DNA from: Patescibacteria group bacterium
Lineage (GTDB): Bacteria; Patescibacteriota; Minisyncoccia; Phycocordibacterales; UBA2100
Direction: 5' to 3'
DNA length: 59,777 nt
NCBI GenBank assembly: GCA_038064535.1
Contig: JBBTSX010000011.1
Coordinates: 1 to 59,777 of the forward strand
Made by a program: the position numbers and the translations under genes
Notes under the pieces: model-generated
The model's database searches: none
Told to the model about the DNA's origin: nothing
Seen by the model: the letters and a program-made list of their open reading frames with translations, nothing else
Part shown: in pieces, positions 4,326-56,354 of the stretch
How the letters are laid out: each line of letters opens with the position of its first letter
Position numbering within the stretch: position 1 is the stretch's first letter

Positions 4326-5079
4326 GCTCGCGGTATTCGTTGGGCTTGAGCGGACCGAGCTTAATATTCATGACGCGCACGCGTTGCAGATTTTCGACGG
4401 ATGTTTTGAGCGCGTCGCACATGCGGCGTATCTGATGTTTCTTACCCTCGGTGAGTGTTATCGAAAATTTGTTGTCGGAACGGATTTCCACTTCACAGGG
4501 CTTGGTAACGTATCCGCCTGTCTGCGTGCCACGCACAGGCAGGCCGATGTCGATGCCGCGCTCCATGACCTTTTTGAAATTGTTCGGCAACGCCTCGCGG
4601 GTCGTCACGCGGTACTCCTTGTCGTGCGCATACTCAGGGTTGAGAAGCCGGTCGGTGACGCGCGCATCGTCGGTCAGAATGATGAGTCCCGACGAGCGCT
4701 TATCAAGCCGGCCAATGGGGAAGACGGAGCGAAGCGGGATGCTTCGCATAATATCAGCCTCGCCTTTTTCAGGGGAATGGGTAATGACGCCGGACGGTTT
4801 GTGGTAAGCGAAATAGCGGTACTTGGTGCGAGCGCCTTTCACCTCGACTTTGTCGCTCTCCTGCACTTTGTCGCCGAGAACCGCTTTGCGGCCGTTAATC
4901 GTCACGAGACCTTTCTCTATGAGGGTGTCCGCGTCCTTGCGCGTCGCGATACCGCGGGAGGCGATATATTTGTTGATGCGCACCCCGTTAGGAATAGCCC
5001 GCCCCGAAGGCCCCGTACGGGGCGCGCCAGCGCGGGCGCGATTTCTAACGGGGCGCATCGGGTAGCTGTCACTCGTCAT
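4279..5079 (-). CDS. S4-domain rRNA pseudouridine synthase (RsuA/RluB/RluF family) carrying two palindromic in-frame inserts
   Basis: RINKYIA S4 domain, GRLDKRSSGL catalytic motif, EGKKHQIRRM. Confidence 0.93.
   Translation of the reverse strand: MTSDSYPMRPVRNRARAGAPRTGPSGRAIPNGVRINKYIASRGIATRKDADTLIEKGLVTINGRKAVLGDKVQESDKVEVKGARTKYRYFAYHKPSGVITHSPEKGEADIMRSIPLRSVFPIGRLDKRSSGLIILTDDARVTDRLLNPEYAHDKEYRVTTREALPNNFKKVMERGIDIGLPVRGTQTGGYVTKPCEVEIRSDNKFSITLTEGKKHQIRRMCDALKTSVENLQRVRVMNIKLGPLKPNEYRELKGQELDQFLKAIGL
4517..4543. repeat. CCTG...CAGG palindromic element, in frame (LPVRGTQTG)
   Basis: cctgtctgcgtgccacgcacaggcagg, 27 nt hairpin inside the CDS. Confidence 0.8.
4983..5053. mobile_element. 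MITE-like element (CCCGTTAG TIR family), copy 1, in frame
   Basis: TIR ccccgttag...ctaacgggg; 4-bp direct repeat CGCA on both sides; 71+4=75 nt. Confidence 0.85.
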
Positions 5080-5107
5080 CACGGGAGTATGTGCTATAAT
5101 CGCGCGC

Positions 5108-5245
5108 ATGGCAAAACGACCGGATGTAGATATACGAAGAAAGAAGACCCGCTCGCGCAAAACCGCGAAGCGCCTCGCCGCAAAGCAGGCGATGCTCGCC
5201 GCGCGCAAGCCCCGCAAAAAGCAGGTGCACGGCCGCGGAAAGTAG
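5108..5245 (+). CDS. small highly basic protein (45 aa), absent from the ORF track
   Basis: MAKRPDVDIRRKKTRSRKTAKRLAAKQAMLAARKPRKKQVHGRGK; TGCTATAAT 7 nt upstream of ATG. Confidence 0.7.
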   Translation: MAKRPDVDIRRKKTRSRKTAKRLAAKQAMLAARKPRKKQVHGRGK

Positions 5246-5337
5246 CGCCGTTCCTCGTAGTATGTTTGACACCGCGTTGCTACGCGGTGTACCGTTGTGA
5301 ACAGCAGATAGCAGATGGAACTGCGGAGGAACCCGCC

Positions 5338-5847
5338 GTGTATGACCCAACCAAAGATTTCCCGAAAATCACGAGTCTCGGCGATATCGCGGTTGATTTC
5401 GACCGAACGATTGACGACAGGATACCGGTACTGAAACGGCACATCAATCCTCATGGCGTACCAGAGGACGTGAGTGATCGATGTTTCCGTCCTTGGCGCA
5501 CCGGCGCCGCTCGCTTCAACGTGTTTGCTGCACGTTGGGGCGACGAAGTCTGGATGACACGCGCACAGCTCAACACGTATGCGAGAGGACAGGGCATGAC
5601 ACTCGGAGACCCGAAGCCCCTACTCGACCTAATCGTCTCGCGACCCGCCAAAGACCTAGACGAGCTGCACCCGATTCTGGCCATCGGGCAGCTCTATTAC
5701 GAACCGGGCATGGGATTTGGACGAGCGCTTTGCCGGTACGGGGTTGGGCCAAGTGTAGGGATTATGACCATGACACTGTCTCCGAATGCACAAGTGACTC
5801 CATGCTGGCAAGTTCTTCTACTCAAAGAGATCAAGGCGAGCGGGTGA
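5338..5847 (+). CDS. hypothetical orphan protein
   Basis: GTG start preceded by GGAGGA; 3' part of long ORF 4384..5847. Confidence 0.6.
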   Translation: MYDPTKDFPKITSLGDIAVDFDRTIDDRIPVLKRHINPHGVPEDVSDRCFRPWRTGAARFNVFAARWGDEVWMTRAQLNTYARGQGMTLGDPKPLLDLIVSRPAKDLDELHPILAIGQLYYEPGMGFGRALCRYGVGPSVGIMTMTLSPNAQVTPCWQVLLLKEIKASG

Positions 5848-5919
5848 AATTCAGCGAACTCTCGTCTAATCGAAGCAAACAATGACCTTCGCGCGTACGC
5901 GGAGGTCGATTTCTTAAAA

Positions 5920-5949
5920 GTTGACAAGCAGGGAAGTATCTGATACACT
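5920..5949 (+). promoter_or_regulatory. sigma70 promoter of the DEAD-box helicase, with a long 5' UTR
   Basis: TTGACA-N17-TACACT. Confidence 0.65.
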
Positions 5950-6095
5950 CTTCAGGTCAGACTCTCTCTCATCGGTTTTGTCTTGGGATTACCAAGGCCG
6001 CGCGCAGTGCACTCCAGCGTGAACCTGTCCCGAGATAGTTCGACACATTTAAACGGCCTTTTAGGCCAAAGCCCTTCAATGGGCTCATATACAAC

Positions 6096-7361
6096 ATGAA
6101 CACTCATTCACGTCATGGACACGGCCCGTCCCGCCCTTCCCGACCCGCAGGTGGCGGGTCACGCGGGCGCAGTTTCGGCGGACGTCCGCAAGGCCGTACA
6201 TTCAGCAGGCCGTCATTTCACGGTTCCCGTGGCGGTAATCGCCGCGCCGCGCCGCGCACTGCGCGCATCGACGTCTCGAAGTTCATCAACAAAGCGGTCG
6301 TGACGGAAGAGCAGGAGGTCTTCGTACCGGAGCACAGCTTTTCCGATTTCATCATTCACGAGAATCTCAAGAAGAATATCGCTCACAAGGGATACACGAC
6401 GCCAACTCCGATTCAGGACCGCGCCATCCCGCACGTCCTCAAGGGCGAAGATGTCGTCGGTATCGCGAATACCGGCACGGGCAAGACCGCAGCGTTTTTG
6501 ATTCCGCTCATCAATAAGGTTCTCAAGGACCGCGCAGAGCACGTGCTCATCATGGTGCCGACCCGCGAACTCGCACAGCAAATAGAAGAAGAATATTGGG
6601 CGTTTGCCGACCATATGCGCATCGGTGCCGTCACGTGCGTCGGGGGCGCCAATATCAATCGCCAGATAGCGACCCTTCGCCGCGGGCCCAATTTCGTCAT
6701 CGGCACTCCCGGCCGTCTCAAAGACCTCATCGAGCGCCGTGCGCTCGACCTTTCCAAATTTCAGACAGTCGTCCTTGACGAGGCCGACCGCATGCTCGAC
6801 ATGGGATTCATTGCCGACATGAAATATATTCTTTCGCTCATGCGCCCCGAACGCCACACGCTCTTCTTCTCGGCGACGCTCACGCGCGAGATTGAATCGC
6901 TCATCCACAGCTTTCTCAAAAATCCCGTGCGCATTTCCGTGAAGACGGGCGACACTGCATCAAATGTTGAGCAGGATATCGTGCGCGTCGCGGGCAAGAA
7001 CAAAATGGACGTGCTCCACGAATTGCTCACACAGCCGGAATTCAGCAAAGTGCTCGTCTTCGGCCGCACCAAGCACGGCGTCGAGAAACTCTCGAAAATT
7101 CTCGCTCAGCGCGGCTTCAAGGCGGAGTCGATTCATGGAAACAAGCGCCAGAACAAACGCGAGCAGGCACTCTCGATGTTCAAAAGTAATCGCGTGCAGG
7201 TTCTCGTCGCGACCGACGTCGCCGCGCGCGGCATCGATGTGGATGATGTGAGCCATGTCATCAACTACGACCTGCCGACCACCTACGAAGACTACGTCCA
7301 CCGCATTGGCCGCACCGGCCGCGCGGGGAAGCGCGGCAAGGCGCTGACCTTTATTGAATAG
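6096..7361 (+). CDS. DEAD-box RNA helicase (RhlE/CshA-like)
   Basis: Q motif, ANTGTGKT, PTRELA, DEAD, SAT, HRIGRTGR; R/G-rich N-terminus. Confidence 0.97.
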   Translation: MNTHSRHGHGPSRPSRPAGGGSRGRSFGGRPQGRTFSRPSFHGSRGGNRRAAPRTARIDVSKFINKAVVTEEQEVFVPEHSFSDFIIHENLKKNIAHKGYTTPTPIQDRAIPHVLKGEDVVGIANTGTGKTAAFLIPLINKVLKDRAEHVLIMVPTRELAQQIEEEYWAFADHMRIGAVTCVGGANINRQIATLRRGPNFVIGTPGRLKDLIERRALDLSKFQTVVLDEADRMLDMGFIADMKYILSLMRPERHTLFFSATLTREIESLIHSFLKNPVRISVKTGDTASNVEQDIVRVAGKNKMDVLHELLTQPEFSKVLVFGRTKHGVEKLSKILAQRGFKAESIHGNKRQNKREQALSMFKSNRVQVLVATDVAARGIDVDDVSHVINYDLPTTYEDYVHRIGRTGRAGKRGKALTFIE

Positions 7362-7406
7362 TTCGACTTCCTTCGACATTGCTCAGGATAAATCGCTCAC
7401 CACAAG
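7362..7406. repeat. nested TTCGA...CTCA repeat
   Basis: ttcgact[tccttcgacattgctcaggataaa]tcgctcaccacaagt; related to copies in msrA and uvrC. Confidence 0.65.
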
Positions 7407-7413
7407 TAACCAT

Positions 7414-7557
7414 ATGTCAAAAAATTTCATGAAAGACGGGAAGTGGATAGACAACCCGAATCAGCCGGCGGTTGTTCTCTGCAAGTGCGGCAACAAGTAC
7501 ATCAAGACCCGTGAGGGCCAGCTCGAGTGCCTACGCTGTCTGCAGAAAGTGAAGTAA
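7414..7557 (+). CDS. small putative Zn-binding protein (47 aa)
   Basis: MSKNF...LCKCGNKY...ECLRC; CxC plus CxxC. Confidence 0.65.
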   Translation: MSKNFMKDGKWIDNPNQPAVVLCKCGNKYIKTREGQLECLRCLQKVK

Positions 7558-7563
7558 CCTTAA

Positions 7564-7586
7564 TGCGTCAAGTCCGACTTGACGCA
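7564..7586. repeat. REP palindrome, left of RAYT-1
   Basis: TGCGTCAAGT-CCG-ACTTGACGCA perfect 10-bp stem. Confidence 0.9.
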
Positions 7587-7607
7587 AAGACTTGGTATAA
7601 TGCGCAG

Positions 7608-8327
7608 ATGCGCGTCGAACCCCATGGCGTCGGTTCCATTCTGCATGTCATAAAGCGCGGCACTCGCGGTGTGGAAATAGTTCGAGACGAGTCAGATCGA
7701 ATTCGCTTTAGCAAGGCACTTTTCTATTTGAATGACGAGCACGATGTAGGCGATTGGATGCGCGATACCGAAGCGCTTGCTGAATTCGAGCGGCCGCACG
7801 CATGGCCGGAGCGCAAACCACTGACGCAGGTACTTGCATGGACGCTTATGCCGAATCATTTTCACTTGCTACTGCGGGAAAGTACTGATGGTGGTGTAGC
7901 GAAGTTTATGCAACGCCTCGGTGGCAGTATGACTACTCATTTCAATGCAAAATATGGTGAGAAGGGGAGTTTGTTCCAGGGAGGTTACAAAGCCAAGACA
8001 ATTGATTCCGACTCGTACCTCCGATATCTTGTGCAGTATATTCTCGTGAAAAACGTTTTCGAATTGCACCCTGGCGGTCTCAAGAAGGCGATGTCTGAGT
8101 TTGATCGGGCATGGGAAAGAGCGCAGCGATATTCTTTTTCGAGCTTGCACTCGTGTATTTCGGACAAGTCCGACTTGACGCAAGACATCGTGGATATCGA
8201 TTCGATAGACTCACTCGGATTACGGATGTCACCGGCTCTTTTCAAGAAGAGAGCCCAAGAGATGCTTGAGACTCACATGACAACAAGGAGCGAAGACTTC
8301 GACGCTCTGCTTCTCGAGCAGTGGTAA
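7608..8327 (+). mobile_element. REP-associated tyrosine transposase (RAYT / Y1 HUH family), copy 1
   Basis: HVIKRG, LMPNHFHLLL HUH motif, YxFSS; flanked by inverted palindromes. Confidence 0.88.
8165..8182. repeat. partial REP copy inside the RAYT-1 coding sequence
   Basis: caagtccgacttgacgca is identical to 18 nt of the flanking REP. Confidence 0.8.
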
Positions 8328-8350
8328 TGCGTCAAGTCGGACCTGACGCA
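8328..8350. repeat. REP palindrome, right of RAYT-1 (inverted orientation)
   Basis: TGCGTCAAGT-CGG-ACCTGACGCA; loop is the reverse complement of the left copy. Confidence 0.9.
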
Positions 8351-8379
8351 ATGTGGCGCAGATTTGTTAAGATGGGTAC

Positions 8380-8925: not shown

Positions 8926-8996
8926 CATCAATACAAAGGTCGGACCTTGATAATTTTACATGTAGGGGACTATTCGCTTTTTGCTATACTCGCATC

Positions 8997-9530: not shown

Positions 9531-9536
9531 TCGCGT

Positions 9537-9758: not shown

Positions 9759-9774
9759 ACCGGTTGCCGGTTTT

Positions 9775-9838
9775 CGAACTCCTCGGCTCGGAAGAACGCG
9801 AGCATGGCTCGCGTTCTTCACTCGCTCTACGTCGTCCG
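9775..9838. repeat. GCTCG-GAA[stem]TTC-NCTCG structured repeat, copy 1
   Basis: 13-bp stem gaagaacgcgagc/gctcgcgttcttc within conserved flanks. Confidence 0.75.
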
Positions 9839-12452: not shown

Positions 12453-12453
12453 T

Positions 12454-24270: not shown

Positions 24271-24408
24271 GGAAGTCTTGCAGGCGTGCTTGCAAGCGCA
24301 CACAACATGCGCTTCCTGACGCGTCTTGCAGAAAAGATTCGTCAGTCAATCGTTGACGACACATTCGAAGAATATAAAAGAGAATTTTTGTCTCGCTATC
24401 AGCCATGA
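24271..24408 (+). pseudogene. tgt: C-terminal remnant of tRNA-guanine transglycosylase
   Basis: LAGVLASAHNMRFLTRLAEKIRQSIVDDTFEEYKREFLSRY resembles the Tgt C-terminus (LxSxHN...IRxxI...FxxFxxEF). Confidence 0.7.
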
Positions 24409-24453
24409 GCGAACCCTTTTTCTTTTTTGGGACGAATCCTGTACAGTAGGCCG

Positions 24454-26487
24454 ATGAGTCGTTTTAAACTTGTATCTTCATATAAGCCGGACGGCGACCA
24501 ACCCAAGGCAATCGAGCAGCTTGTAAGCGGTCTTGAAGAGGGGAAACGCGACCAAACGCTCCTTGGTGTTACGGGCTCGGGCAAGACCTTTGCCGTGGCC
24601 AATATCATCGAGCAAGTCCAGAAGCCGACGCTTGTCATCGCTCACAACAAGACGCTGGCGGCCCAGCTTGCCTCCGAATACCGCGATTTTTTTCCTGATG
24701 CGGCGGTGCACTATTTCGTCTCGTACTACGACTACTACCAGCCAGAAGCGTATGTGCCGGTAACGGATACCTATATTGAGAAGGAGGCAATGGTGAATGA
24801 AGACATCGAACGTTTGCGGCACGCCGCGACACAGGCGCTCCTCACGCGCAGGGACGTCGTCGTCGTCGCATCCGTCTCCTGCATTTACGGATTGGGAAGC
24901 CCGGTGGAGTATCAAAAAGTGAACCTCAAACTCACGGCGGGCGAGCCCATGACGCGCGCCACGCTGACGCGCAAGCTCATAGCGATTTATTTCGAGCGAA
25001 CGACAGGTGACCTGTCGCCGGGTACATTCCGCGCGCTCGGTTCGACCATCGAAATTATGCCCGCAAGCGAGCGCGTCATCTACCGCGTCGATCTCACGGG
25101 TGGCAAGATTGCAAAAATCGAGGAGATAGACGCCATGACGCGAGAAATCGGAGAGCGTCATGAAGCGGTTTTTATTTTCCCAGCCCGCCAATACGTCACC
25201 CCCAAAGACGTAGTGGATGCCGCACTTGCCGACATGGAAAAGGAGCTAAAGGACCGATTGAAACAACTCAACGACTCGGGAAAAATATTGGAGGCAGAGC
25301 GGCTCAAGCGCCGCACGCGGCAGGACATCACGATGATACGGGAGTTCGGCTACTGCAACGGCATCGAGAATTATTCACGGCATTTTGACAGACGTAAACC
25401 GGGCGAGCCGCCGTACACACTCTTGAGCTACTTCCCAAAAGATTTTCTTACCGTCATTGACGAGTCGCATGTCACCATACCGCAAATCGGCGGCATGTAC
25501 GCGGGCGACCGCTCGCGCAAAGACACGCTCGTCGAGCACGGTTTCCGTTTGCCGAGTGCGGTTGATAACCGGCCGCTGACATTCGACGAATTCGAAGCCC
25601 GGGTAGGCCAGAAAATATACACGTCGGCCACGCCGGGCAAGTACGAAGCGGAACATAGCGGCAAACCGGTGGAGATGGTCATCCGCCCGACGGGGCTCAT
25701 CGATCCCGAGATTATCGTGCGGCCCATCGTAAGCCTGCCTGCGCAGGCAGGCTCGGCAGGATACGAGGGACAGGTCAAAGATTTTATCGGGGAGGTCGAG
25801 GCTGTCACGAAACACGGCGGGCGTTCGATGGTCACTGTGCTCACCAAGAAAATGGCGGAGGACCTCGCGACATTCCTCGACGAGAAAAAGATAAAGGCGC
25901 GCTATGTGCACAGCGATGTGAAAACCATCGAGCGTATCGAGATACTCACAGAGTTCCGCCGTGGAACGTTCGACGTGTTGGTCGGCGTTAACCTGTTACG
26001 CGAAGGATTGGACCTGCCGGAGGTGGAGATGGTCGCAATTATGGACGCGGACAAAGAAGGGTTTCTCCGTTCCGAAACTTCTCTCATCCAGACCATCGGG
26101 CGCGCGGCGCGCAACGTGCACGGCCGCGTCATTCTCTATGCCGACAATATGACCGGCTCGATGGAGCGTGCGATAGGTGAGACCAACAGGCGTCGTGCGA
26201 TACAGCTCGCCTACAACAAAAAGCACAAGATAACGCCGAAAACGATTCAAAAACGCATCAACGACATCATAGGAGATATTCAGAAAAACAGGAGACGCGC
26301 GGTCGAACAGCTCGCCACGGAAGATGTCGCCGCATTCGGCGGCGACCCGAAGAAGGCAATTGCCGAGAAGCGCCGCCAAATGCATGCCGCCGCCGACGAA
26401 TTGGATTTCGAAACGGCCGCACTCCTTCGCGACGAGATACAGGAGCTTGAGAAAGAGATTAAGCGCACCAAGCAACCAAAAAAGTGA
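24454..26487 (+). CDS. uvrB: excinuclease ABC subunit B
   Basis: GVTGSGKT, YYDYYQPEAY beta-hairpin, DESH, QTIGRAAR, C-terminal UVR domain. Confidence 0.98.
   Translation: MSRFKLVSSYKPDGDQPKAIEQLVSGLEEGKRDQTLLGVTGSGKTFAVANIIEQVQKPTLVIAHNKTLAAQLASEYRDFFPDAAVHYFVSYYDYYQPEAYVPVTDTYIEKEAMVNEDIERLRHAATQALLTRRDVVVVASVSCIYGLGSPVEYQKVNLKLTAGEPMTRATLTRKLIAIYFERTTGDLSPGTFRALGSTIEIMPASERVIYRVDLTGGKIAKIEEIDAMTREIGERHEAVFIFPARQYVTPKDVVDAALADMEKELKDRLKQLNDSGKILEAERLKRRTRQDITMIREFGYCNGIENYSRHFDRRKPGEPPYTLLSYFPKDFLTVIDESHVTIPQIGGMYAGDRSRKDTLVEHGFRLPSAVDNRPLTFDEFEARVGQKIYTSATPGKYEAEHSGKPVEMVIRPTGLIDPEIIVRPIVSLPAQAGSAGYEGQVKDFIGEVEAVTKHGGRSMVTVLTKKMAEDLATFLDEKKIKARYVHSDVKTIERIEILTEFRRGTFDVLVGVNLLREGLDLPEVEMVAIMDADKEGFLRSETSLIQTIGRAARNVHGRVILYADNMTGSMERAIGETNRRRAIQLAYNKKHKITPKTIQKRINDIIGDIQKNRRRAVEQLATEDVAAFGGDPKKAIAEKRRQMHAAADELDFETAALLRDEIQELEKEIKRTKQPKK
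25734..25751. repeat. CCTG...CAGG palindrome, in frame in uvrB (LPAQAG)
   Basis: cctgcctgcgcaggcagg, perfect 18-nt palindrome. Confidence 0.85.
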
Positions 26488-26497
26488 CTTTCTACCG

Positions 26498-26535
26498 GTA
26501 CATTATAACAGGCCGACCGGCCTGTTATAATGTAC
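26498..26535. repeat. palindromic double -10 element, copy 1
   Basis: gtacattataacaggccg-ac-cggcctgttataatgtac. Confidence 0.8.
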
Positions 26536-26612
26536 TTACTATTTGGGAGATTGCCTATGCGAGCAGGGGACTTGGCCCATTCTGGGGTATTCGCGTGTGG
26601 TAATCTGGAGCC

Positions 26613-28226
26613 GTGGGACTTCACTTCAACCCTGCGGATATTCAATCTATAGGAATCGGTCTTGCCGCGTTTCTGGCGACTGTGCTGGCTGTTTTCATTT
26701 TCATCAGCGCGCGCCACGAGCGCCTCGGCCGGCCGATGTGGGTCACGCTCGGAGTCGCGTCTGTTTGGGCGTGGTTTGGGTTTTTGTACCATCTTGTGCC
26801 GGGTCTTGAGCTTGCGCGTGACATGCGCGTCGTCTCCGTCATGGGTATCGTGTGGCTGGCTATGTCGCAATTGTATTTTGCCGGCATCTATCTGGGAGAG
26901 CGTGTGCAGTACGGCAAGCTGGTCCGGCGGATGCAGTTGGCCATCTATTCTTTCGGTGCCTTTTTGACGGCGCTCCTCGTTGCGGACCTGTTCGGTACGA
27001 GGCTGATAGTCGGCAAGCTGCTGTTTCCGGCGGATGTCGCTCTCGCGCCGATGGCTGGACCGCTTTTTGGTGTGCTTGTCGGTTATTTTGTGGTTTGTAC
27101 TATTTTTTCCGGTACATTGCTCGCGTGGCGTGCGCGGGCCGGAATTGACTCGTCGGACAGAAACCAGGCTCTTGCGCTTTTTATAAGCATGACGGTGGGG
27201 CTCACGCTCGGGGGCACGCGCTTTACGCCGTGGTACGGATTTGATTTCTACCCGCTCGTCGGCGACATCGGCTTTCCGCTCTTCGTATTCGCCACCTTCT
27301 ACTCCATCAAGCGTTACCACCTGCTCAATCGCGAGGTGGCCGCGGCGCAGCTCTTTATTTTCACACTCTGGACGCTTTCATTCTTCCGCTTTCTGCTCGA
27401 CACCTCCGCGCAAGCGATGTGGGTGGACGGTGGGTTCTTCCTCGCGGCGCTCGTACTCGGCGTCTTCCTGCTGCGGAGCGTCGTGATGGAAGCGAAGGCA
27501 CAGCGCGAGCTTGCCGCGGTCGCGGTAGAACGTACGAAATCGGAATTCATCACAATCGCCGCTCATCAGCTGCGGACGCCTGTCGCCGCACTGCGCTGGT
27601 CGTTTAATCTGCTCGCCGAGGGACGCGAGCAGCTCTCCGAGAAGCAGCGCGCGCTCGTCGACAAGGGCAATCGCGCCGCCGATAATATGATGCATCTGGT
27701 CAACGACCTGCTCGACATGGGTCACATCGCGGAAGGGAGATTTACCTACGCCTTCGCCGTGGGGGACCTCGGTGACACCGTTCGCGCGGAAGCGGGGCTG
27801 TTTGAAGATGTCGCGAAACAAAAAGGGGTCGCGCTTGATGTCAGTATCGCGGATAATCTTCCCGCGATACGCTTTGACGCGAACAGGCTGAATCTCGCGA
27901 TACAGAATCTTGTCGACAATGCCGTCAAATACACCGCTTCCGGCGGCCGGGTGACCGTCGCCACGGAGCGCTCCGGCGAGGGGGTGCGCATCACGGTGCA
28001 GGATACCGGCATCGGGTTCACGCCCGACGAGCAATCACGCGTCTTCGAGAAATTCTTCCGCGGTTCGCGCGCGGTGCACATGTCGCCGGACGGGAGCGGA
28101 CTTGGCCTATTTATCGCGAAAACAATCATCGAAGGCCATGGCGGCAGGCTTACGTTCTCTACCGAGGAGGGCAAGGGGGCGAGATTTACCATCTCGTTGC
28201 CGACAAAGCCCCCCGCCACACCGTAG
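26613..28226 (+). CDS. membrane-bound sensor histidine kinase
   Basis: multi-TM N-terminus, AAHQLRTP H-box, NAVKY, DTGIG, GSGLGL. Confidence 0.95.
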   Translation: MGLHFNPADIQSIGIGLAAFLATVLAVFIFISARHERLGRPMWVTLGVASVWAWFGFLYHLVPGLELARDMRVVSVMGIVWLAMSQLYFAGIYLGERVQYGKLVRRMQLAIYSFGAFLTALLVADLFGTRLIVGKLLFPADVALAPMAGPLFGVLVGYFVVCTIFSGTLLAWRARAGIDSSDRNQALALFISMTVGLTLGGTRFTPWYGFDFYPLVGDIGFPLFVFATFYSIKRYHLLNREVAAAQLFIFTLWTLSFFRFLLDTSAQAMWVDGGFFLAALVLGVFLLRSVVMEAKAQRELAAVAVERTKSEFITIAAHQLRTPVAALRWSFNLLAEGREQLSEKQRALVDKGNRAADNMMHLVNDLLDMGHIAEGRFTYAFAVGDLGDTVRAEAGLFEDVAKQKGVALDVSIADNLPAIRFDANRLNLAIQNLVDNAVKYTASGGRVTVATERSGEGVRITVQDTGIGFTPDEQSRVFEKFFRGSRAVHMSPDGSGLGLFIAKTIIEGHGGRLTFSTEEGKGARFTISLPTKPPATP

Positions 28227-28245
28227 AGTGGTATACTAATCGCGT

Positions 28246-28647
28246 ATGGCAGACCCGTTCGGACCCCGCATTCTTATCGTCGAGGACGACCCGCTCCTCT
28301 CCGAGCTTCTTGCCGAGAAATTGCACGGCGAGAAATTCGACTTGCGGATGGCGCGCACGGGCGAGGAAGCTCTCGAGAGCGTCAAGAAAGATAAGCCCGA
28401 TCTGATGTTGCTCGACATCCTGTTGCCGGGCATCGACGGTTTCGAGGTATTAAAACGCGTCAAAGAGGATCCGGGGACGAAGCATATCGTCGTCATCATT
28501 CTCTCCAACCTCGGTCAGCAGAGCGATATAGATAAGGGAACACAACTCGGCGCGGAAAAATACATCGTGAAGGTCTCTCTCACATTGAGCGAAGTGGTGC
28601 AAGCCGTGCGCGACGTGTGGCAAAAGCACGCTCCGCAGGCTGCATAA
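28246..28647 (+). CDS. single-domain response regulator (receiver only)
   Basis: ILIVEDD, LLDILLPGIDG, ILSN, YIVK. Confidence 0.95.
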   Translation: MADPFGPRILIVEDDPLLSELLAEKLHGEKFDLRMARTGEEALESVKKDKPDLMLLDILLPGIDGFEVLKRVKEDPGTKHIVVIILSNLGQQSDIDKGTQLGAEKYIVKVSLTLSEVVQAVRDVWQKHAPQAA

Positions 28648-28699
28648 ACCGCTAGCCTTACTTTGTTTTTCAGTGCCGCTGTGCGGTATAGTGCTCTGT

Positions 28700-29632
28700 A
28701 TGCAAGAAATACGGGAACAGGTACCGCTCGCACCGCAAACGACTTTTGAGATAGGGGGAAGCGCCCGCTATTTTGTGGATGTCCGCAGTGAAGGCGAAAT
28801 ACGCGAAGCGATAGCGTGGGCGAATGACAAGAAAGTGCGGTTTGTCGTATTAGGCGGCGGCAGCAATGTGCTGGTGCCGGACGGCGGTCTCGACGGGCTG
28901 GTCGTTCATATCGTCGGAGATTTGTACGGGGTGGAAGACCTGCCTGCGCAGGCAGGCGGAATGTTGGACACGTGGGCGGGAAGCAATTTGCTTTTTTTGA
29001 TACAAACGTTGGGAGCACGGGGATACGGCGGGTGGGAAAAGCTCGCGGGCATTCCGGGGACCATCGGCGGCGCCGTGCGCGGCAACGCAGGTGCATTCGG
29101 TTCCGAGATAAAAGATTTTGTACTGAAAGTCCGCGCGCTCAATCCGGCAACAGGTGAGTCGCGTGAATTCACGAATGCGGATTGCGATTTCTCCTACCGT
29201 CATAGCTTTTTCAAGGATAATCCACAATGGATAATCACCCGCACCATCGTTCGACTACATAGGTCTCACCTATGTAGTAAGTTGGTAAACGAGACGATTG
29301 CGGAGCGCGAGAAGCGGCATTTGCAAAATGTCCGTGCCGCGGGCAGCTTCTTTATGAACCCGAAGGCTCCGCAGAACATCGTCGACATGTTCGAGAAAGA
29401 GAAAGGCGTCGAATCACGCGAAGGCCGCGTTCCCGCAGGATGGTTGATAGAAAAAGCCGGCATGAAAGGCGCGACCGTCGGCGGCGCCATCGCCAGCCTC
29501 CAGCACCCGAATTACATCGTCAATCAGGGCAGCGCGACGGCAGACAATGTCCGCGAGCTCGCGGGGAAGATAAAGGCGGCCGTCGCGGAACAATTTGGTG
29601 TCGAGCTGCAAGAAGAAGCTGCAATTATGTAA
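28700..29632 (+). CDS. murB: UDP-N-acetylenolpyruvoylglucosamine reductase
   Basis: LGGGSNVL, GIPGTIGGAVRGNAGAFG, YRHS, AGSFFMNP, H.NYIVN. Confidence 0.97.
   Translation: MQEIREQVPLAPQTTFEIGGSARYFVDVRSEGEIREAIAWANDKKVRFVVLGGGSNVLVPDGGLDGLVVHIVGDLYGVEDLPAQAGGMLDTWAGSNLLFLIQTLGARGYGGWEKLAGIPGTIGGAVRGNAGAFGSEIKDFVLKVRALNPATGESREFTNADCDFSYRHSFFKDNPQWIITRTIVRLHRSHLCSKLVNETIAEREKRHLQNVRAAGSFFMNPKAPQNIVDMFEKEKGVESREGRVPAGWLIEKAGMKGATVGGAIASLQHPNYIVNQGSATADNVRELAGKIKAAVAEQFGVELQEEAAIM
28939..28956. repeat. CCTG...CAGG palindrome, in frame in murB (LPAQAG)
   Basis: identical 18-mer to the uvrB copy. Confidence 0.85.
29254..29278. repeat. REP-like palindrome within murB (LHRSHLCS)
   Basis: ACTACATAGGT-CTC-ACCTATGTAGT perfect 11-bp stem. 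Confidence 0.75.
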
Positions 29633-29638
29633 AAGCGA

Positions 29639-29663
29639 GTGGCCGGTCGAGTTGACCGGCCAC
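29639..29663. terminator. hairpin between convergent genes
   Basis: GTGGCCGGTC-gagtt-GACCGGCCAC. Confidence 0.65.
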
Positions 29664-29686
29664 CATTCGTCATACCGACGTTACGA

Positions 29687-29860
29687 CTAGCGCATAAGCG
29701 CCGCCCACGCGGCGATTTCCGCTTGAAGAGCAAGCTGTTGCTCTTTTGTGCGCACGGGGAAGCTACCGTCAGGATTTTGTTTTCGGTAGATTTCGGAAAA
29801 CGTAACCCATCTGATGGGCTGCACTCCCGCTTCGTTGTCAATCGTCTGTTCGCCCGGCAT
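29687..29860 (-). CDS. small hypothetical protein (57 aa), absent from the ORF track
   Basis: GGGAGG SD; MPGEQTIDNEAGVQPIRWVTFSEIYRKQNPDGSFPVRTKEQQLALQAEIAAWAALMR. Confidence 0.6.
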   Translation of the reverse strand: MPGEQTIDNEAGVQPIRWVTFSEIYRKQNPDGSFPVRTKEQQLALQAEIAAWAALMR

Positions 29861-35519: not shown

Positions 35520-37187
35520 TCAAAGAGGGCCGATATGTGCATGCTGGCCCGTCATTCGGGAAAAGAGTATGCTAGCATCCTCTTTGTCCCTCATTAGGGC
35601 CAGTAGTTCAGTGGTAGAATGCCTCATTTGCAATGAGGAGGTCCGGGGTCCGATTCCCCGCTGGTCCACAAGTATCGGAACGAGGTCATTTTCGGAGTGG
35701 TTTTCTTTGGCCGCCAACAAAGAAAACCATTGATTCTGCGGCACGCCGCGCGCTTCGCGCGCGTGGAGGGTGAGGTTCGAGCCGAAGATTTTTTGGAGGG
35801 AGGATTTTTTGGAGGGGAGGTCTTTAGATTGTGCCGCTTCATCAAGCAATGAAGCGTCCTTTAGCCATGCTCGCATGGGTTCGAGCCACACGGCGGCGTT
35901 GCGTTCAAGCAGGAGGATTCTCTCCTGCGCCGACTTCTTTGTGGACATCAGTGCGCGCTTCCTTTCGAGATAGTCGCCGCGCTCAATATCCTGTTCGACA
36001 AAGAGGTCGGTAAGGCGGGCAATTTTGCCGTCCAAGTCGGCAATCTTTGCCCGCATCGCTTGGACGGACGCCGCCGTGGTTTGAGAGGCACTTGCCGCGT
36101 CTTTCTCGGCCATTGCGTCCAGCTCCTTGGCCCAATGTTCCGGCAAGACGAATTTTGCGAGCAAGCCGGATAGTTGCGAGTCCAGCGCTTCTTCTCGCAC
36201 ATACGGCTGTGAGCAGTGAACGGCGGCTTTCTTTTTCGTACAGCGATAGTAGACGTAGCGATGGACGTTGCCGTTTTTCTGCCGTTTCAGCTTGTCCTCG
36301 GCGGTGATGGAAAAACCGCACTCGCCGCATCGCAAAAGGCCGCAATATACTTGCGGATTATTCTCGGACGGTCTCTTGTTGCTCCGGAGTCTTGATACTT
36401 CCTGCACGCGGTCGAACAACCTTTTGCTCACGATGGGCGTATGTGTACCCTCATACATTTCACCGCTGTACTTGAAATGGCCGAAGTAGAACGGATTGGA
36501 AAGCAGGAATGCTATCTGGTCTTTCTTGAGGGGCCTACCGCCGCCCTTGCTCCATCCGCGCGTGGCTCCGGTCTTGATGCCGCGCTCAAAAAGAAACTGC
36601 GCAATATCTTCGAGCCGCGATTCGTTCTTGGCGTATAACTCAAATGCTTTGCGGACGAGCGGCGCTTTGCGACGGTCTACAACGATGGTGCGGGTGCGTG
36701 GGTCGTTGAGGTAGCCGAGGGGCGCGGTGCTTGGATAAATACCCATTCGCGCCTTTTGCCGGAGGCCTCGTGTCACATTCACACTCAAATCGCGGATGTA
36801 CTGATTGGCCATGCCGAACTCCACGGACATGAGGAGTACATTGTCGTGCGGAAAATACGCCTTGTCGTGCGTAACAATTTTCTGAATGACACTCTGTTGC
36901 AAAAGCCAACTGATGCGGCCGCTATCCACCGGATTACGCGAAAGCCGGTCAATCTTCCAACACACGACGCCTTGCGCCTCGCCGCGCTCGACACGCTTTA
37001 GCATTTCCTCAAACACCGGGCGGCCCGGCATCTTGGCGCTCCGCTTCTCCACGAACTCCTCCGCCACTTCCAGTCCATCACGTCGCGCGAGCGCGCGAAG
37101 CTCGGCAAGCTGCGCTTCGATGGAGAGCACTTGCTTGTCCTCGACATCGGTACTTTTGCGTGCGTAGAGGAAGTAGGCGGGTGTCAT
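35520..37187 (-). CDS. large serine recombinase/integrase
   Basis: YARKS catalytic Ser, IDRLSRN, APLGY recombinase domain, Zn ribbon CGECG...YYRC...C, coiled coil. Confidence 0.95.
   Translation of the reverse strand: MTPAYFLYARKSTDVEDKQVLSIEAQLAELRALARRDGLEVAEEFVEKRSAKMPGRPVFEEMLKRVERGEAQGVVCWKIDRLSRNPVDSGRISWLLQQSVIQKIVTHDKAYFPHDNVLLMSVEFGMANQYIRDLSVNVTRGLRQKARMGIYPSTAPLGYLNDPRTRTIVVDRRKAPLVRKAFELYAKNESRLEDIAQFLFERGIKTGATRGWSKGGGRPLKKDQIAFLLSNPFYFGHFKYSGEMYEGTHTPIVSKRLFDRVQEVSRLRSNKRPSENNPQVYCGLLRCGECGFSITAEDKLKRQKNGNVHRYVYYRCTKKKAAVHCSQPYVREEALDSQLSGLLAKFVLPEHWAKELDAMAEKDAASASQTTAASVQAMRAKIADLDGKIARLTDLFVEQDIERGDYLERKRALMSTKKSAQERILLLERNAAVWLEPMRAWLKDASLLDEAAQSKDLPSKKSSLQKIFGSNLTLHAREARGVPQNQWFSLLAAKENHSENDLVPILVDQRGIGPRTSSLQMRHSTTELLALMRDKEDASILFSRMTGQHAHIGPL
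35597..35668 (+). tRNA. tRNA-Ala (anticodon TGC)
   Basis: cloverleaf: acceptor GGGCCAG/CTGGTCC with G3:U70, anticodon arm CCTCA-TTTGCAA-TGAGG, T arm CGGGG-TCCGATT-CCCCG. Confidence 0.95.
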
Positions 37188-37250
37188 ATCCCTATTATAG
37201 AGCAAATGCTCTGCGTAGAGCAATAGCGGGACAACTGCTATCATGTTGTT

Positions 37251-46428: not shown

Positions 46429-46453
46429 AAAAGAAAGTATACCGCATGTATCT

Positions 46454-46482
46454 AAATCCAAGAGGCGTCACCTCTTGGATTT
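46454..46482. repeat. REP palindrome, left of RAYT-2
   Basis: AAATCCAAGAGG-CGTCA-CCTCTTGGATTT. Confidence 0.92.
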
Positions 46483-46498
46483 ATGGTAATATGGCGGG

Positions 46499-47194
46499 AT
46501 GGGGTATCGACGGGTGCCGTTCGCCTGTGAGGAGTGGTATCACTGCTATTCTCGCGGCATCGATAAGCGCGTCGTGTTTGAGGACGACGCGGACGCCCAG
46601 CGATTCGTTGAATTGCTCTACCTGGCAAACGATAACAAACCCATTCAGCGCGAGAATTTCTACCACTTAAAACATAGTGACATCCTTCGAATGCCCCGTA
46701 ATCATCAGATTGTTTCCATTGGAGCATACAGTCTGATGAAAAATCACTACCACCTTCTCATTCAAGAAATAGAAGAAGGTGGAATAACAAAATTCATGCA
46801 GAAAGTCGGTACTGGATATAGCATGTACTTCAACAAAAGGCATAATCGCGTCGGCAATGTGTTTGTGAAGCCGTTCCGCTCCAAGCACGTATCAACGGAT
46901 AGGTATCTTTATCGTGTCGCGCAGTACATCCATTTAAATGCGGCAGAAATATTCGAGAAAGGATGGAAGCACGGTAGAGTTTCAAACATTGCCGCGCTGC
47001 AACAAAAGCTCACTCAATACCCATTCTCAAGTTTTCCGGATTACGCAAGTGATTCTTTGCGTCCTGAACGAAGTATTTTGGATGAATCCGCGAGAACGAT
47101 TTTGGCGGATCGTTTGCCGGAGCTTTCTGCCGTGCTTATCGAAATGCGGGACTACTACCTTGACCTTGAGCGGGAGTTTAAATCCAAGAGGTGA
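46499..47194 (+). mobile_element. REP-associated tyrosine transposase (RAYT / Y1 HUH family), copy 2
   Basis: YHCYSRG, YSLMKNHYHLL HUH motif, YIHLN, YPFSS. Confidence 0.92.
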
Positions 47195-47228
47195 CGCCTC
47201 TTGGATTAGAGGTGACGCCTCTTGGATT
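47181..47228. repeat. inverted REP plus tandem 21-nt partial copy, right of RAYT-2
   Basis: aatccaagaggtgacgcctcttggatt followed by agaggtgacgcctcttggatt; supplies the TGA stop. Confidence 0.92.
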
Positions 47229-51246: not shown

Positions 51247-51268
51247 ACTCCACAGAACACCAGTTCTC

Positions 51269-51297
51269 CACGAACGCCCCATGATGGGGCGTTCGTG
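51269..51297. terminator. hairpin terminator
   Basis: CACGAACGCCCC-atgat-GGGGCGTTCGTG. Confidence 0.75.
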
Positions 51298-51310
51298 TTA
51301 AAATATCGTC

Positions 51311-52729: not shown

Positions 52730-52732
52730 TCC

Positions 52733-53761: not shown

Positions 53762-53779
53762 ACTTGATATAGTAGTGCG

Positions 53780-54904
53780 ATGGCACATACGGTTTTTGTC
53801 GGACTCTCCGGGGGTGTAGATAGCGCGGTGAGCGCCGCGCTTCTCAAAGAGCAGGGGCACAAGGTGGTGGGCGTATTCATAAAGATTTGGCAACCGGAAT
53901 TTATCGAGTGCACGTGGCAGAGAGACCGGCTCGATGCGATGCGCGTCGCCGCGGCGCTTGGCATTCCGTTCAAGGAAATTGATTTGTCCGAAGAGTACAA
54001 AAACGAAGTCGTCACAAAAATGATTTCATCGTATGAAGCCGGAGAGACGCCGAATCCCGACGTATTGTGCAACCGCAGTATCAAATTCGGCGCTTTTTCG
54101 AAATGGGCGCGCGCGGAGGGCGCCGACGTTGTCGCGACGGGGCATTATGCGCAAATCAAGAAAGGTGAGTACGGCCCCGAGCTGTGGCGCGGAGCGGATG
54201 CGTCAAAAGACCAGTCCTACTTTTTGTACCAACTCAGTCAGAGTGACCTTTCGCGGGCGGCGTTCCCCGTCGGCGCAATGACAAAAAAACAAGTGCGCGC
54301 GTATGCAAAAGCGCATTCACTCCCCGTCGCGCAGAAACCCGACAGTCAGGGGCTGTGTTTTGTCGGCGACGTCAGCATGCGCGATTTCCTGAAGCGTTTT
54401 ATCACAGTTGCCGACGGGAGGGTGACCGACAAGAAGGGCCACATTGTCGGCGTACACGAAGGCGCCGCGCTCTACACTATCGGACAGCGGCACGGGTTTA
54501 CCATCACCAAAAAGCAGTTGGCGAAGACGCCGCACTATGTCACCGGTATTGATACCAAAAACAACATCGTGATAGTGTCGGCAAACCGCTCCGATGCGGC
54601 GCGCGCGAGCATCCATGTGCCGGACATGCATTGGATATCGGGTGCCGCCCCGTCGTTCCTCACTGGACTTGCCGTGCAGACGCGCTACCGCGAGACGCCG
54701 CTTGCCATCAAGCTGCGCAGTGAAGCTAAGCGTGCCTATATCGACTTTAGCGAGCCTCACGTCGTCGCCCCCGGTCAATCAGCCGTTGTGTATGACGGCG
54801 GCCGCTGTCTCGGCGGCGGCATCATCGCAAAAGACGCCGCTCCCGTGGTCGCTTCGACAAAGACGCAAGAAGTCAGGAAAATTGAGGTGACGGGCCGGAG
54901 TTGA
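53780..54904 (+). CDS. mnmA: tRNA 2-thiouridine synthase
   Basis: SGGVDS, TPNPDVLCN, ATGHYA, KDQSYFL, DSQGLCF, PGQ. Confidence 0.97.
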   Translation: MAHTVFVGLSGGVDSAVSAALLKEQGHKVVGVFIKIWQPEFIECTWQRDRLDAMRVAAALGIPFKEIDLSEEYKNEVVTKMISSYEAGETPNPDVLCNRSIKFGAFSKWARAEGADVVATGHYAQIKKGEYGPELWRGADASKDQSYFLYQLSQSDLSRAAFPVGAMTKKQVRAYAKAHSLPVAQKPDSQGLCFVGDVSMRDFLKRFITVADGRVTDKKGHIVGVHEGAALYTIGQRHGFTITKKQLAKTPHYVTGIDTKNNIVIVSANRSDAARASIHVPDMHWISGAAPSFLTGLAVQTRYRETPLAIKLRSEAKRAYIDFSEPHVVAPGQSAVVYDGGRCLGGGIIAKDAAPVVASTKTQEVRKIEVTGRS

Positions 54905-54970
54905 TATCCGCAGTCGGAGTGCGGGGAGTCTCTTGTGAGCCCGCAGTCGGGGTACAATGTGCGTAATGAA

Positions 54971-55090
54971 TCCCGTTAGAGACTGCGGAAGACGGAGTCA
55001 TGTTTTTTTGATGATACAGAGAGTGTCTGTGGTCGGATTATCAGCTCATAGCCGGGCGGGAAGCGTAACCGCTTCCTGTCTCTAACGGGA
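54971..55090. mobile_element. MITE-like element (CCCGTTAG TIR family), copy 4, at a start codon
   Basis: tcccgttagaga...tctctaacggga with a TGAA duplication; internally homologous to copy 3. Confidence 0.88.
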
Positions 55091-55497
55091 TGAAAGAAGC
55101 GCTCGTGCGCCTCGTGTGGTTCTTTATCATTGCGTGCGCGGTTTCGTACACGGTATTTCTCGTTGCGGGAAGCGCTATCCGCGCGCAAGCAATCGATGAG
55201 AGCCGTATTGTCCTCATCCGCGACTCTCTCAAGCCCGGCGTGCACTATCTCTCGGGTATCATCATGGCGCCTTCTACTTGTGCGCAGATATCGGAGCGCA
55301 CTACACAACTTTCGACAACGACATACCACCTGATTTTTACGAGCTGGGAGGAGCCGTCGGTGGCCTGCATACGGGAAGATACGCCTCGGTCGTTTCGTGT
55401 GGTCGTGTTCGCGCCCTCGGCGGGCATAGAATTTATCGGCTCGCTCGACGATACTCCGCTCCGGCTCGCGGTGATTCCTGTCATTCAACGCAATTGA
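55090..55497 (+). CDS. hypothetical exported protein
   Basis: N-terminal TM; its ATG is formed by the element end plus the TSD. Confidence 0.75.
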   Translation: MKEALVRLVWFFIIACAVSYTVFLVAGSAIRAQAIDESRIVLIRDSLKPGVHYLSGIIMAPSTCAQISERTTQLSTTTYHLIFTSWEEPSVACIREDTPRSFRVVVFAPSAGIEFIGSLDDTPLRLAVIPVIQRN

Positions 55498-55499
55498 AC

Positions 55500-56354
55500 A
55501 TGTCTCACATTTTCATAACAAAAGCAGACGGGGAACAGGAGCCTTTTGATCCGGTAAAGCTCGAGCGCTCGCTGTCGCACGCAGGCGCATCGTCGACTAT
55601 ACGCGCGCGTATTCTCTCGGAGGTCATCAAGGAGCTCCGGCCGCTCATGACGACCGAGGATATCTACCGGCGTGCGTTTTCATTGCTTAAGAAAGACGAG
55701 GCGACACCCATCGCGGCCCGATACTCGGTGAAGCGGGCGGTGTTTGCGCTGGGCCCCTCAGGATTTCCTTTTGAACAATTTCTTGCCGAAGTGTTGCGTG
55801 CACACGGCTGGCGCGTGCGCACCGATGTGACGCTCATGGGCCGCTGTGCTCCGCATGAGGTAGACGTGCTCGCCGAGAAGGACCTGCCTGCGCCCAGCGG
55901 CGGGCAGGCAGGCGTCAAGCGGGTCGGCATCGAGGCCAAATTCCACAACGAGCCGGGCGGCAAGACCGACATCAAAGACGCGCTCTATGTGAAGGCCCGT
56001 TACGACGACCTCCGCCAGGCGCCGCTTGCCTCTTCGCGGGTGGATGAGGGCTGGCTTGTTACCAATACGGTTCTGACGCGCAATGCCATCCGTTATGCGC
56101 GATGTTCCAATCTCACGGTTATCGGGTGGGACTATCCGCGCACCCGCGGACTGATGCAGATGATAGAGGAGGGGAAAGTGCATCCGCTCACGGCTCTGAC
56201 TACGCTTTCCGAGGGAGAAAAACGTCGCCTTTTGGAGAACAAAGTCGTCTTGTGCAAGAGTGTACAGGACCCGCATACACTCCGTGAGTACGGCGTCGCA
56301 CCGGGCAAGATTCCACAGGTACTTGAAGAAGCGAAACAATTATGTTCGATTTGA
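55500..56354 (+). CDS. ATP-cone plus restriction-endonuclease-like (Mrr-type PD-(D/E)XK) protein
   Basis: ITKADG..EPFD..KL ATP cone; GPSGFPFE, HEVDV...IEAKFHN. Confidence 0.85.
   Translation: MSHIFITKADGEQEPFDPVKLERSLSHAGASSTIRARILSEVIKELRPLMTTEDIYRRAFSLLKKDEATPIAARYSVKRAVFALGPSGFPFEQFLAEVLRAHGWRVRTDVTLMGRCAPHEVDVLAEKDLPAPSGGQAGVKRVGIEAKFHNEPGGKTDIKDALYVKARYDDLRQAPLASSRVDEGWLVTNTVLTRNAIRYARCSNLTVIGWDYPRTRGLMQMIEEGKVHPLTALTTLSEGEKRRLLENKVVLCKSVQDPHTLREYGVAPGKIPQVLEEAKQLCSI
55883..55912. repeat. CCTG...CAGG palindrome, in frame (LPAPSGGQAG)
   Basis: cctgcctgcgcccagcggcgggcaggcagg, 30 nt. Confidence 0.82.

Follow-up and report, generated by a model that had tools for sequence, protein, structure and literature searches.

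The 59,777-nucleotide contig JBBTSX010000011.1 of a Patescibacteria group bacterium (assembly GCA_038064535.1), analyzed at its full length and called the window below, carries four copies of a short palindromic hairpin, each lying in frame within a conserved gene. The window is one whole contig of a genome that we refer to as G000 (905 kb in 19 contigs, 55% GC, rated 94% complete), and its DNA is present in groundwater metagenomes, with none of the runs listed for 24400-29700 recorded as RNA; the related genomes used for comparison measure 0.4-1.2 Mb. The original prediction, made from the letters of this DNA, had reported four copies, and all four were found in place.

The first copy, of 27 nucleotides (nt), lies at 4517-4543 on the minus strand, in the gene of an RluA-family pseudouridine synthase (4282-5454, minus strand; Pfam PF00849, PseudoU_synth_2, and PF01479, S4). 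Its gene-sense sequence, CCTGCCTGTGCGTGGCACGCAGACAGG, reads LPVRGTQTG, and its left arm on the plus strand, CCTGTCTG, carries one mismatch. The second copy is a perfect 18-nt palindrome, CCTGCCTGCGCAGGCAGG, at 25734-25751 on the plus strand; it reads LPAQAG within uvrB (24427-26487, plus strand), a gene recognized from its translation and with full-length matches in 31 of 31 genomes. As DNA, it folds into a 9-bp hairpin with a z-score of -3.6. An identical palindrome, also read LPAQAG, is found at 28939-28956 (plus strand) in murB (28673-29632, plus strand; identified from its translation and orthologues). The fourth copy, a 30-nt hairpin at 55883-55912 on the plus strand, reads LPAPSGGQAG and lies in the gene of a restriction-endonuclease-like protein with ATP-cone and Mrr_cat domains (55278-56354, plus strand; assigned by Pfam), which has orthologues in 28 of the 31 genomes. 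Contigs from an independent study span the uvrB and murB copies with 0 gaps, indicating that these copies are not assembly artefacts.

Structure and abundance of the hairpin family

The element consists of two 8-nt arms, CCTGCCTG and CAGGCAGG, which give it the outer unit CCTG...CAGG. In the 18-nt form nothing but CG separates the arms, while longer copies, of up to 60 nt, follow the order arm, CG, inner stem-loop, arm. When loci were called with at most one mismatch over both arms together and a total length of no more than 60 nt, 28 were found across G000. Their lengths are 18 (six loci, one of them mismatched), 27, 30, 33, 36, 39, 42, 45 and 60 nt, with 34 and 35 nt occurring once each, and the element accordingly encodes 6-20 residues (18-60 nt). 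A common 20-nt variant, CCTGCCTGCCGGCAGGCAGG, corresponds to a 21-nt insert of seven residues, LPAGRQA, so that the rule of lengths in multiples of three holds for this variant too. The interiors define sub-families that are read LPAP..GGQAG, LPAS..RQAG and LPVR..TQTG; an asymmetric interior occurs in both orientations (read LPAP.. and LPAA/LPAE..). The copies fold as DNA hairpins, with z-scores of -1.6 to -3.6.

The motif is far more frequent than base composition would give. In G000 there are 19 exact arm pairs, compared to none in each of 20 genomes simulated with a third-order Markov model, and 70 single CCTGCCTG arms, compared to 25.5 ± 4.4 in the simulations. Unpaired arms number 23, which is approximately the chance number. 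Within the window, CCTGCCTG occurs nine times on the two strands together, versus a mean of 1.37 (maximum 4) in 100 dinucleotide shuffles, none of which reached nine. Two solo arms in the window, at 3363 and 12825, look like chance occurrences.

Elsewhere in G000, Pfam places copies in dnaK, polA, gatB, secF, murC and the genes of an NAD-epimerase, trigger factor, a trypsin-like protease (htrA-like), RNase J (two copies), a beta-CASP RNase, a staphylococcal-nuclease homologue, an ABC ATPase, an aldo-keto reductase and a SET/GIY-YIG protein; host identity rests on Pfam throughout, except for uvrB and murB, where it comes from orthologue alignments. At least 21 of the 28 copies are held by well-supported open reading frames (ORFs). 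Our custom gene caller is crude (840 genes, 83% coding) and missed two hosts supported by Pfam, and the coding fractions are therefore approximate. The original prediction that the palindromes are present only as in-frame inserts proved mostly right, with exceptions of three kinds: two copies are clearly intergenic, in AT-rich spacers (C5:61472, 35 nt, and C8:3705, 34 nt); two are in another phase (phase 1) at the ends of ORFs, one in the last 12 codons of pyrG and the other in the first 5% of another ORF; and three lie in short, low-scoring and doubtful ORFs.

Conserved ends around a changing centre could also be left behind by the imprecise excision of an insertion sequence (IS) whose terminal inverted repeats start with CCTGCCTG, and the variety of junctions between the arms (CG, CGG, CCGG, CAG, CTAG and others) does resemble a set of footprints. 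However, no such IS is present in G000, unpaired arms do not exceed chance, and the sole distant pair of arms, at C8:57654 and 59246, falls within genes for type III restriction-modification. Moreover, the hosts dnaK, polA, murB, murC, gatB and secF are essential and single-copy and could thus not have carried a full IS, and the interiors are stem-loops common to several loci and species. We consider it highly improbable that the copies are excision footprints.

The copies as insertions

Alignment with orthologues from the same genus showed the copies to be additions to their host proteins. Twelve hosts could be tested in this way (UvrB, MurB, Rlu, the Mrr-type nuclease, DnaK, PolA, GatB, SecF, MurC, the epimerase, Tig and HtrA), and all 12 alignable copies appear as clean gaps of exactly the length of the element in the orthologues, which have no equivalent residues at these positions, as the original prediction expected. 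The two RNase J copies, which lie in a low-complexity N-terminal extension and are not reliably alignable, stand outside these twelve. The UvrB peptide is absent in 28 of 29 relatives and present only in the closest relative of G000, which we call G001 (95% identical in this protein; host proteins of the two genomes are 64-98% identical, mostly 90-98%). The MurB peptide is absent in 23/23 aligned relatives and that of the pseudouridine synthase in 20/20, G001 being included in both cases (94% identical in the latter), and the ATP-cone/Mrr nuclease shows a 10-residue gap in 28/28 aligned relatives. The peptides of dnaK, polA, epimerase, tig and the htrA-like gene are each missing in 5/5 relatives, those of murC and gatB in 4/4 and 3/3, respectively, and that of secF in 4/5, with G001 again having it.

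G001 therefore shares only the UvrB and SecF copies among the twelve tested, and 10 of the 12 are missing from the closest relative aligned at the site, which is G001 for most of them (at the GatB and MurC sites G001 gave no alignable sequence). Gains are reciprocal, with copies in G001, G032, G054, G070, G129 and G182 corresponding to gaps in G000. Decay by point mutation is seen as well, G000 reading LPAQAR where G001 keeps LPAQAG. These data show that the copies are genuine insertions and that most of them are recent.

The junctions are exact. The cleanest filled and empty sites differ by precisely the unit CCTG...CAGG, with at most one ambiguous base, which means that there is no target-site duplication, in agreement with the original prediction. 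For example, G001 has gcgcttcacgcc GA[18-mer]C ggcatg where G000 has gcgcttcacgcc GAC ggcatg, and G032 and G129 have tgg[unit]gac where G000 has tgg gac. The DNA junctions of the pseudouridine synthase and ATP-cone/Mrr copies were also compared with G001, and the former is a 27-nt insertion at GACATCGG|CGGATAC. In G000, the base 3' of the unit is always C, the third base of the split codon, and is often followed by GGN or GAC, while flanks vary in AT-rich genomes. No DNA target motif was found in the filled/empty pairs, whose left flanks are GA, CA, GG, TT, TG and TGG.

Reading frame and position in the proteins

Of the 28 lengths in G000, 26 are multiples of three, and both exceptions are intergenic (Fisher P = 0.0026, with all 26 counted as genic). 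The claim that all lengths are multiples of three is thus correct for 26 loci and fails for the 34- and 35-nt intergenic copies. This fits the related proposal that only frame-preserving copies survive, since the sole two copies of other lengths are the ones between genes. Reading phase is also biased: in 24 of the 28 loci the first base of the element is the third base of a codon (phase 2; xxC CTG CCT ... CAG GCA GGx), yielding the peptide Leu-Pro-(Ala/Val)...(Gln/Thr)-(Ala/Thr)-Gly. Twenty-two of these loci come from the crude gene caller and two from the Pfam-supported ORFs that it missed; a conservative count of 22/25 still gives P = 2e-8 against an expectation of 1/3.

The single phase noted originally for the four window copies therefore extends to most of the genome, but does not hold as a rule of the element. 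Among 41 copies in seven other genomes of the genus, assigned by longest ORF, 28 are in phase 2, eight in phase 0 and five in phase 1. Copies outside phase 2 form clean gaps in real genes, with the peptides PACRDEHGAGR (L191, in G032), CLRRGRGRQA (L200) and ACLRRQ (L207); G129 provides a fourth, PACAGR, at a Trp|Asp (W|D) site also used in G032, and L269 is likewise listed as a phase 0/1 copy with a clean gap. The occurrence of phases 0 and 1 with clean gaps elsewhere indicates that the phase bias is a filter imposed by selection and not a feature of the insertion mechanism. We also considered whether the phase stems from a preference for brief target sequences such as C|G or [CG]AC|G; only about 45-55% of the sense-strand occurrences of these motifs fall at a codon boundary, and this explanation was rejected.

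An alternative explanation for the tolerance of these inserts is that the hairpin is removed from the mRNA or bypassed by the ribosome, in the manner of a mini-intron or bypass element, leaving the protein unchanged. Every copy is indeed able to form a stable stem. However, an element that is removed would need neither a length in multiples of three nor freedom from stop codons nor a preferred phase, and the observed lengths, with their only exceptions between genes, are hard to reconcile with this. The sites in the window also match no Rfam family; at gathering thresholds the sole Rfam match in the window is a tRNA (35597-35668, plus strand). Removal or bypass is in our view the least likely of the explanations considered. 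The pattern of lengths and phases, together with the intergenic location of the copies of other lengths, argues instead for purifying selection on an insert that is translated.

Where the position in the protein can be assessed, it is a coil or loop. In an AlphaFold model of MurB (mean predicted local distance difference test score, pLDDT, of 82), LPAQAG forms coil residues 90-95 between strands 85-89 and 96-101, and the UvrB site is a loop that bears other inserts in 7 of 29 relatives. The proposed location in surface loops is supported in these two cases, for MurB as a predicted structure. Asp, Asn, His or Gly mostly precedes the insert and Gly often follows it, as is typical of turns.

Distribution across the phylum

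We searched for the pattern CCTGCCTG-N(0-30)-CAGGCAGG in related genomes, using the reversed pattern as a control. Genomes with the pattern number 39 of 61 in the genus (control 0), 49 of 151 in the order (45 of 131 genera) and 84 of 301 in the phylum (76 of 248 genera), the control giving single hits in three genomes at each of the latter two levels. A single genome can have as many as 39 copies. Throughout, it is the same 18-mer and 20-mer that reappear, and the arms are invariant across the phylum while interiors vary; different species contain sub-families whose interiors are the same. The GC-rich 18-mer stands unchanged in G182 and G129, amid surroundings of 28-40% GC. In G182, it is read LPAQAG by longest ORF in 12/12 loci, 10 of them in ORFs of at least 140 residues, and its copies form clean six-residue gaps against G000 where they can be aligned. 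A patchy, phylum-wide spread combined with invariant ends points to a mobile element that spreads horizontally, or to an activity that recognizes its ends, and argues against local mutation.

Conservation of this breadth could also mean that the sequence is kept because it benefits the cell, as a protein-binding DNA site, as a hairpin in the mRNA that adjusts its translation or decay, or as a useful peptide. The phylum-wide constancy of the arms is in keeping with this idea, as are the repeated occupation of the same sites and the lack of enrichment between genes. It is made less likely by the patchiness of the element, which is absent from 217/301 genomes of the phylum and 22/61 of the genus, by the copies missing from the closest relative at 10 of the 12 tested sites, by their decay through point mutation and by the functional unrelatedness of the host genes. 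Furthermore, the three reading phases give unrelated peptides, so that no single peptide can have been selected. A benefit to the cell is therefore a very unlikely explanation.

The exact 18-mer is also present in 25 stretches of viral contigs from IMG/VR (L355-L379), several of them duplicates and some with two copies per contig. These loci are mostly of 58-67% GC, and their phase by longest ORF is unreliable (13 in phase 2, 14 in phase 1 and four in phase 0); we draw no conclusion from them. A blastn search of the uvrB site against phage records gave no match.

Probable mobility and candidate mobilizing activities

Taken together, we think it probable that the copies belong to one family of non-autonomous mobile mini-hairpins that are translated with their host genes and filtered by selection. 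A copy would enter a new site as the exact unit CCTG...CAGG without duplicating the target and, with at least 83% of the genome coding, would mostly land in a gene. It would stay in the mRNA and be translated. Selection would then remove copies that break the frame or add a harmful peptide, and the survivors would be those of 3n length, mostly in phase 2, in turns and variable loops of housekeeping proteins. As for the mobile hairpin put forward in the original prediction, the pattern of gains and the distribution are what suggest mobility, while no mobilizing enzyme was identified.

Some observations weigh against this account. Copies are not enriched between genes, although such an enrichment would be expected if most genic insertions were harmful. 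No contig among those listed skips the 18 nt at 25734 or 28939, although assembled contigs cannot reveal rare empty alleles. Finally, the same protein site can hold different variants in distant genomes, as at the staphylococcal nuclease site, which has 36 nt in G000 (C8:6354-6389) and 30 nt in G032 (C2:88151-88180), and at the W|D site, which has 33 nt in G032 (C1:114041) and 18 nt in G129 (C26:9677), both in phase 0. Mobile hairpins would need insertion hot spots or turnover in place to produce this.

Single-strand HUH/Y1 enzymes are suggested by the lack of target-site duplication and by the shape of the element as a hairpin, and a transposase of this type, similar to those of the IS200/IS605 family or to the transposases associated with repetitive extragenic palindromes (REPs), known as RAYTs, is a possible though doubtful mobilizer, acting in trans. 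Five Y1_Tnp genes whose products have HUH and Tyr motifs are present in G000. Two lie inside the window, at 7527-8324 (plus strand, 266 residues, with a hairpin at 7564-7586) and at 46499-47191 (plus strand, 231 residues). On either side of the latter gene stands a hairpin with the stem AATCCAAGAGG (46453-46483 and 47181-47207); the two copies are inverted, and their loops are mutually reverse complementary. Of the other three, the genes at C6:34677-35360 and C7:23120-23746 adjoin hairpins of their own, and none was noted at C5:130174-130815. Within the order, Y1 genes are found in 40 of 49 genomes that bear the element versus 49 of 102 that do not (odds ratio 4.8, P = 9e-5). For rve, a transposase family used as a control, there is no such association (12/49 vs. 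17/102, odds ratio 1.6, P = 0.27).

The details of the Y1 loci are less favorable to such an enzyme. The hairpins adjoining the four of the five G000 genes inspected differ from the element, and nine Y1 loci in G430, G413, G394 and G248, which are four of the five genomes with the highest copy numbers, have no CCTGCCTG hairpin within about 1.5 kb. G182 (14 copies, 97% complete) has no Y1 match at E <= 1e-5, and G469 (27 copies, 79% complete) has none at E <= 0.001. Within the genus, Y1 gene number correlates weakly with element number (rho 0.25, P = 0.05), in a comparison between genomes that are not independent. The element also lacks a conserved tetranucleotide on its 5' side, unlike IS200/IS605. 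The Y1 proteins of the window score 31-34 bits against the NCBIfam RAYT model, for which the cut-off is 80 bits.

The main rival explanation does without a dedicated transposase altogether. Short-patch illegitimate recombination is an existing process, and nuclease-resistant single-stranded hairpin fragments, copied from existing elements or acquired from neighbours, could be patched in at replication forks by recombination at the level of microhomology, with selection acting afterwards. The lack of a cognate enzyme among our findings would then be no surprise, nor would the absence of target-site duplications and of a clear target motif, or the high copy number of G182 and G469. A second palindrome in G000, CAGTATGATATATCATACTG, moreover replaces residues in ArgS and PheT with no change in length, which looks like patch replacement. 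On the other hand, both ends of the junction are base-exact in every clean pair, suggesting a defined cut-and-join reaction, and the constancy of the arms across the phylum beside variable interiors suggests that the ends are recognized. The presence of Y1 genes, and not of the control transposase family, is also associated with the element. Overall, patching of hairpin fragments seems improbable compared to the movement of a mobile hairpin.

A bolder version of the mobile hairpin is conceivable, although we give it a little less credit still than the Y1 transposase: the 18-nt CCTGCCTGCGCAGGCAGG might be the core of a protein-coding mobile element smaller than any yet known, moved by no recognized transposase but by an activity conserved or exchanged throughout the phylum. 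If so, the same 8-nt ends would be written into genomes ranging from 30 to 60% GC, and would keep supplying the essential proteins of otherwise shrinking genomes with loop insertions.

Relation to known palindromic and mobile elements

In-frame palindromes are known in principle from two groups of elements. The Rickettsia palindromic elements (RPEs), described by Ogata et al. (2000, 2002) as summarized in the review PMC10969869, measure about 150 bp; nearly half of them lie within ORFs, and the summary counts 44 insertions in metabolic genes of R. conorii. The likeness to the present family, as far as that summary goes, is that dispersed palindromes sit in frame in unrelated housekeeping genes of a bacterium with a small genome, leaving the ORF open and adding a family-specific peptide. 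By description, which is the basis of this comparison, the family differs from RPEs in its size, 18-60 nt (6-20 residues) with eight conserved bases per arm, and in spanning a phylum where RPEs are described from one genus.

The second group are intragenic REPs, which Di Nocera et al. (2013, PMC3733652) describe as stem-loops of 20-40 bp within ORFs that encode short peptides, many of them in uvrA/uvrB, DNA polymerase I, recBCD and pseudouridine synthase genes; the list in Additional file 3 of that article may hold closer parallels. The precedent that the original prediction drew from RPEs is therefore sound as to in-frame palindromes but too narrow, since palindromes of REP size occur inside genes as well, and not only RPEs of about 150 bp. 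With 28 loci in 905 kb, the element resembles REPs in being a short, multi-copy, imperfect palindrome. It differs in its ends, which are CCTG and CAGG where the REPs described in that article carry GTAG or CGTC tags (CGTC occurs here only inside the LPAS sub-family), and in being genic in at least 21 of 28 cases, where those REPs are mostly intergenic and downstream of ORFs. Among the Y1 loci inspected there was no REPtron, the name for a Y1 gene with the repeat on its flanks. As in the present case, the accounts given in these two sources name no dedicated transposase for RPEs (PMC10969869) or CGTC REPs (PMC3733652).

The 'peel and paste' transposition of IS200/IS605 and RAYT enzymes offers a likeness of mechanism, in that hairpin DNA is recognized and inserted seamlessly without target duplication, and Y1/HUH genes are statistically associated with the element here. 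IS200/IS605 elements insert 3' of a fixed tetra- or pentanucleotide and have distinct left and right ends, while the element has no fixed 5' target tetranucleotide and consists of a single hairpin. MITEs, which are miniature inverted-repeat transposable elements, make target-site duplications and derive from an IS. They are similarly short and non-autonomous, with inverted ends, and can give in-frame fusions (as outlined in PMC10969869); bacterial MITEs are put at 70-300 bp with terminal repeats of 15-30 bp in the passage devoted to them in PMC3733652. The present copies are of 18-60 nt, show no target-site duplication and have no parent IS in G000. Bypass elements and mini-introns, lastly, are free in length and frame, unlike the 26 of 28 copies that keep to multiples of three.

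A literature search, which covered articles without their supplements, returned nothing on the motif, the peptide or in-frame palindromes in the Candidate Phyla Radiation (CPR) or Patescibacteria. With the principle already established by RPEs and intragenic REPs, what is new here is that the element is of minimal size (18 nt, six residues), that its copies are predominantly genic, that essential genes have gained it recently, that its junctions are exact and that it is spread across the Patescibacteria. Loss of DNA is usually all that is described for genomes of about 1 Mb such as these, and here gain is ongoing. The six-residue size allows a clean test of the effect on a protein, and the three reading phases amount to a natural experiment in the tolerance of loop peptides. 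The presence of the element, with invariant ends, in about a quarter to a third of the sampled genomes of the phylum makes the question of what moves REP- and RPE-like palindromes testable. For annotation, the family explains why conserved proteins in these organisms have short inserts that fail to align.

Other palindromes and minor features

The uvrB loop holds unrelated palindromic inserts in L006 (G006), L007 (G002), L010 (G014) and L029 (G020), several of them perfect at the DNA level, that of G014 being a perfect palindrome of 42 nt. This suggests that in-frame palindromic insertion is a general habit of the lineage and not a property of one family. In gatB (C9:72878-72916), just past the LPAQAG copy, there is a second insertion of eight residues, DSTGSPQA, relative to three orthologues, with no obvious palindrome.

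The AT-rich palindrome CAGTATGATATATCATACTG, a perfect 20-mer that is always read SMIYHT, occurs in five housekeeping genes, encoding ArgS, a MiaA-like protein, PheT, a serine hydrolase and a glycosyltransferase (C1:61004, C5:91586, C13:7354, C6:13405 and C9:34338). We considered it as a sister insertion family and rejected this, since the ArgS and PheT orthologues are equally long at the site and the palindrome replaces residues instead of adding them. A perfect palindrome of 46 nt lies in a valyl-tRNA synthetase-like gene (C10:8847-8892), whose protein is only seven residues longer than its orthologues; part of this palindrome may thus be an inverted copy of pre-existing sequence.

Another family of palindromes, of 36-40 nt and with the form GTACATTATAACAGGCCG..CGGCCTGTTATAATGTAC, is represented in the window at 26498-26535, just 3' of the uvrB stop codon, and elsewhere at C9:22836, C1:49572, C10:45356, C3:12241 and C3:4129; it is REP-like or terminator-like. 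The tRNA at 35597-35668 overlaps a 574-residue ORF on the opposite strand (35520-37244, minus strand), and a hairpin is listed nearby at 35698-35729. A further hairpin, ATGCAACACATATTAGGTGTTGCAT, is found at 12-36 in the window and at C8:12-36, C14:11-35 and C3:12296-12320, in each case within about 40 nt of a contig end. A repeated element carrying this hairpin is probably where the assembly breaks.

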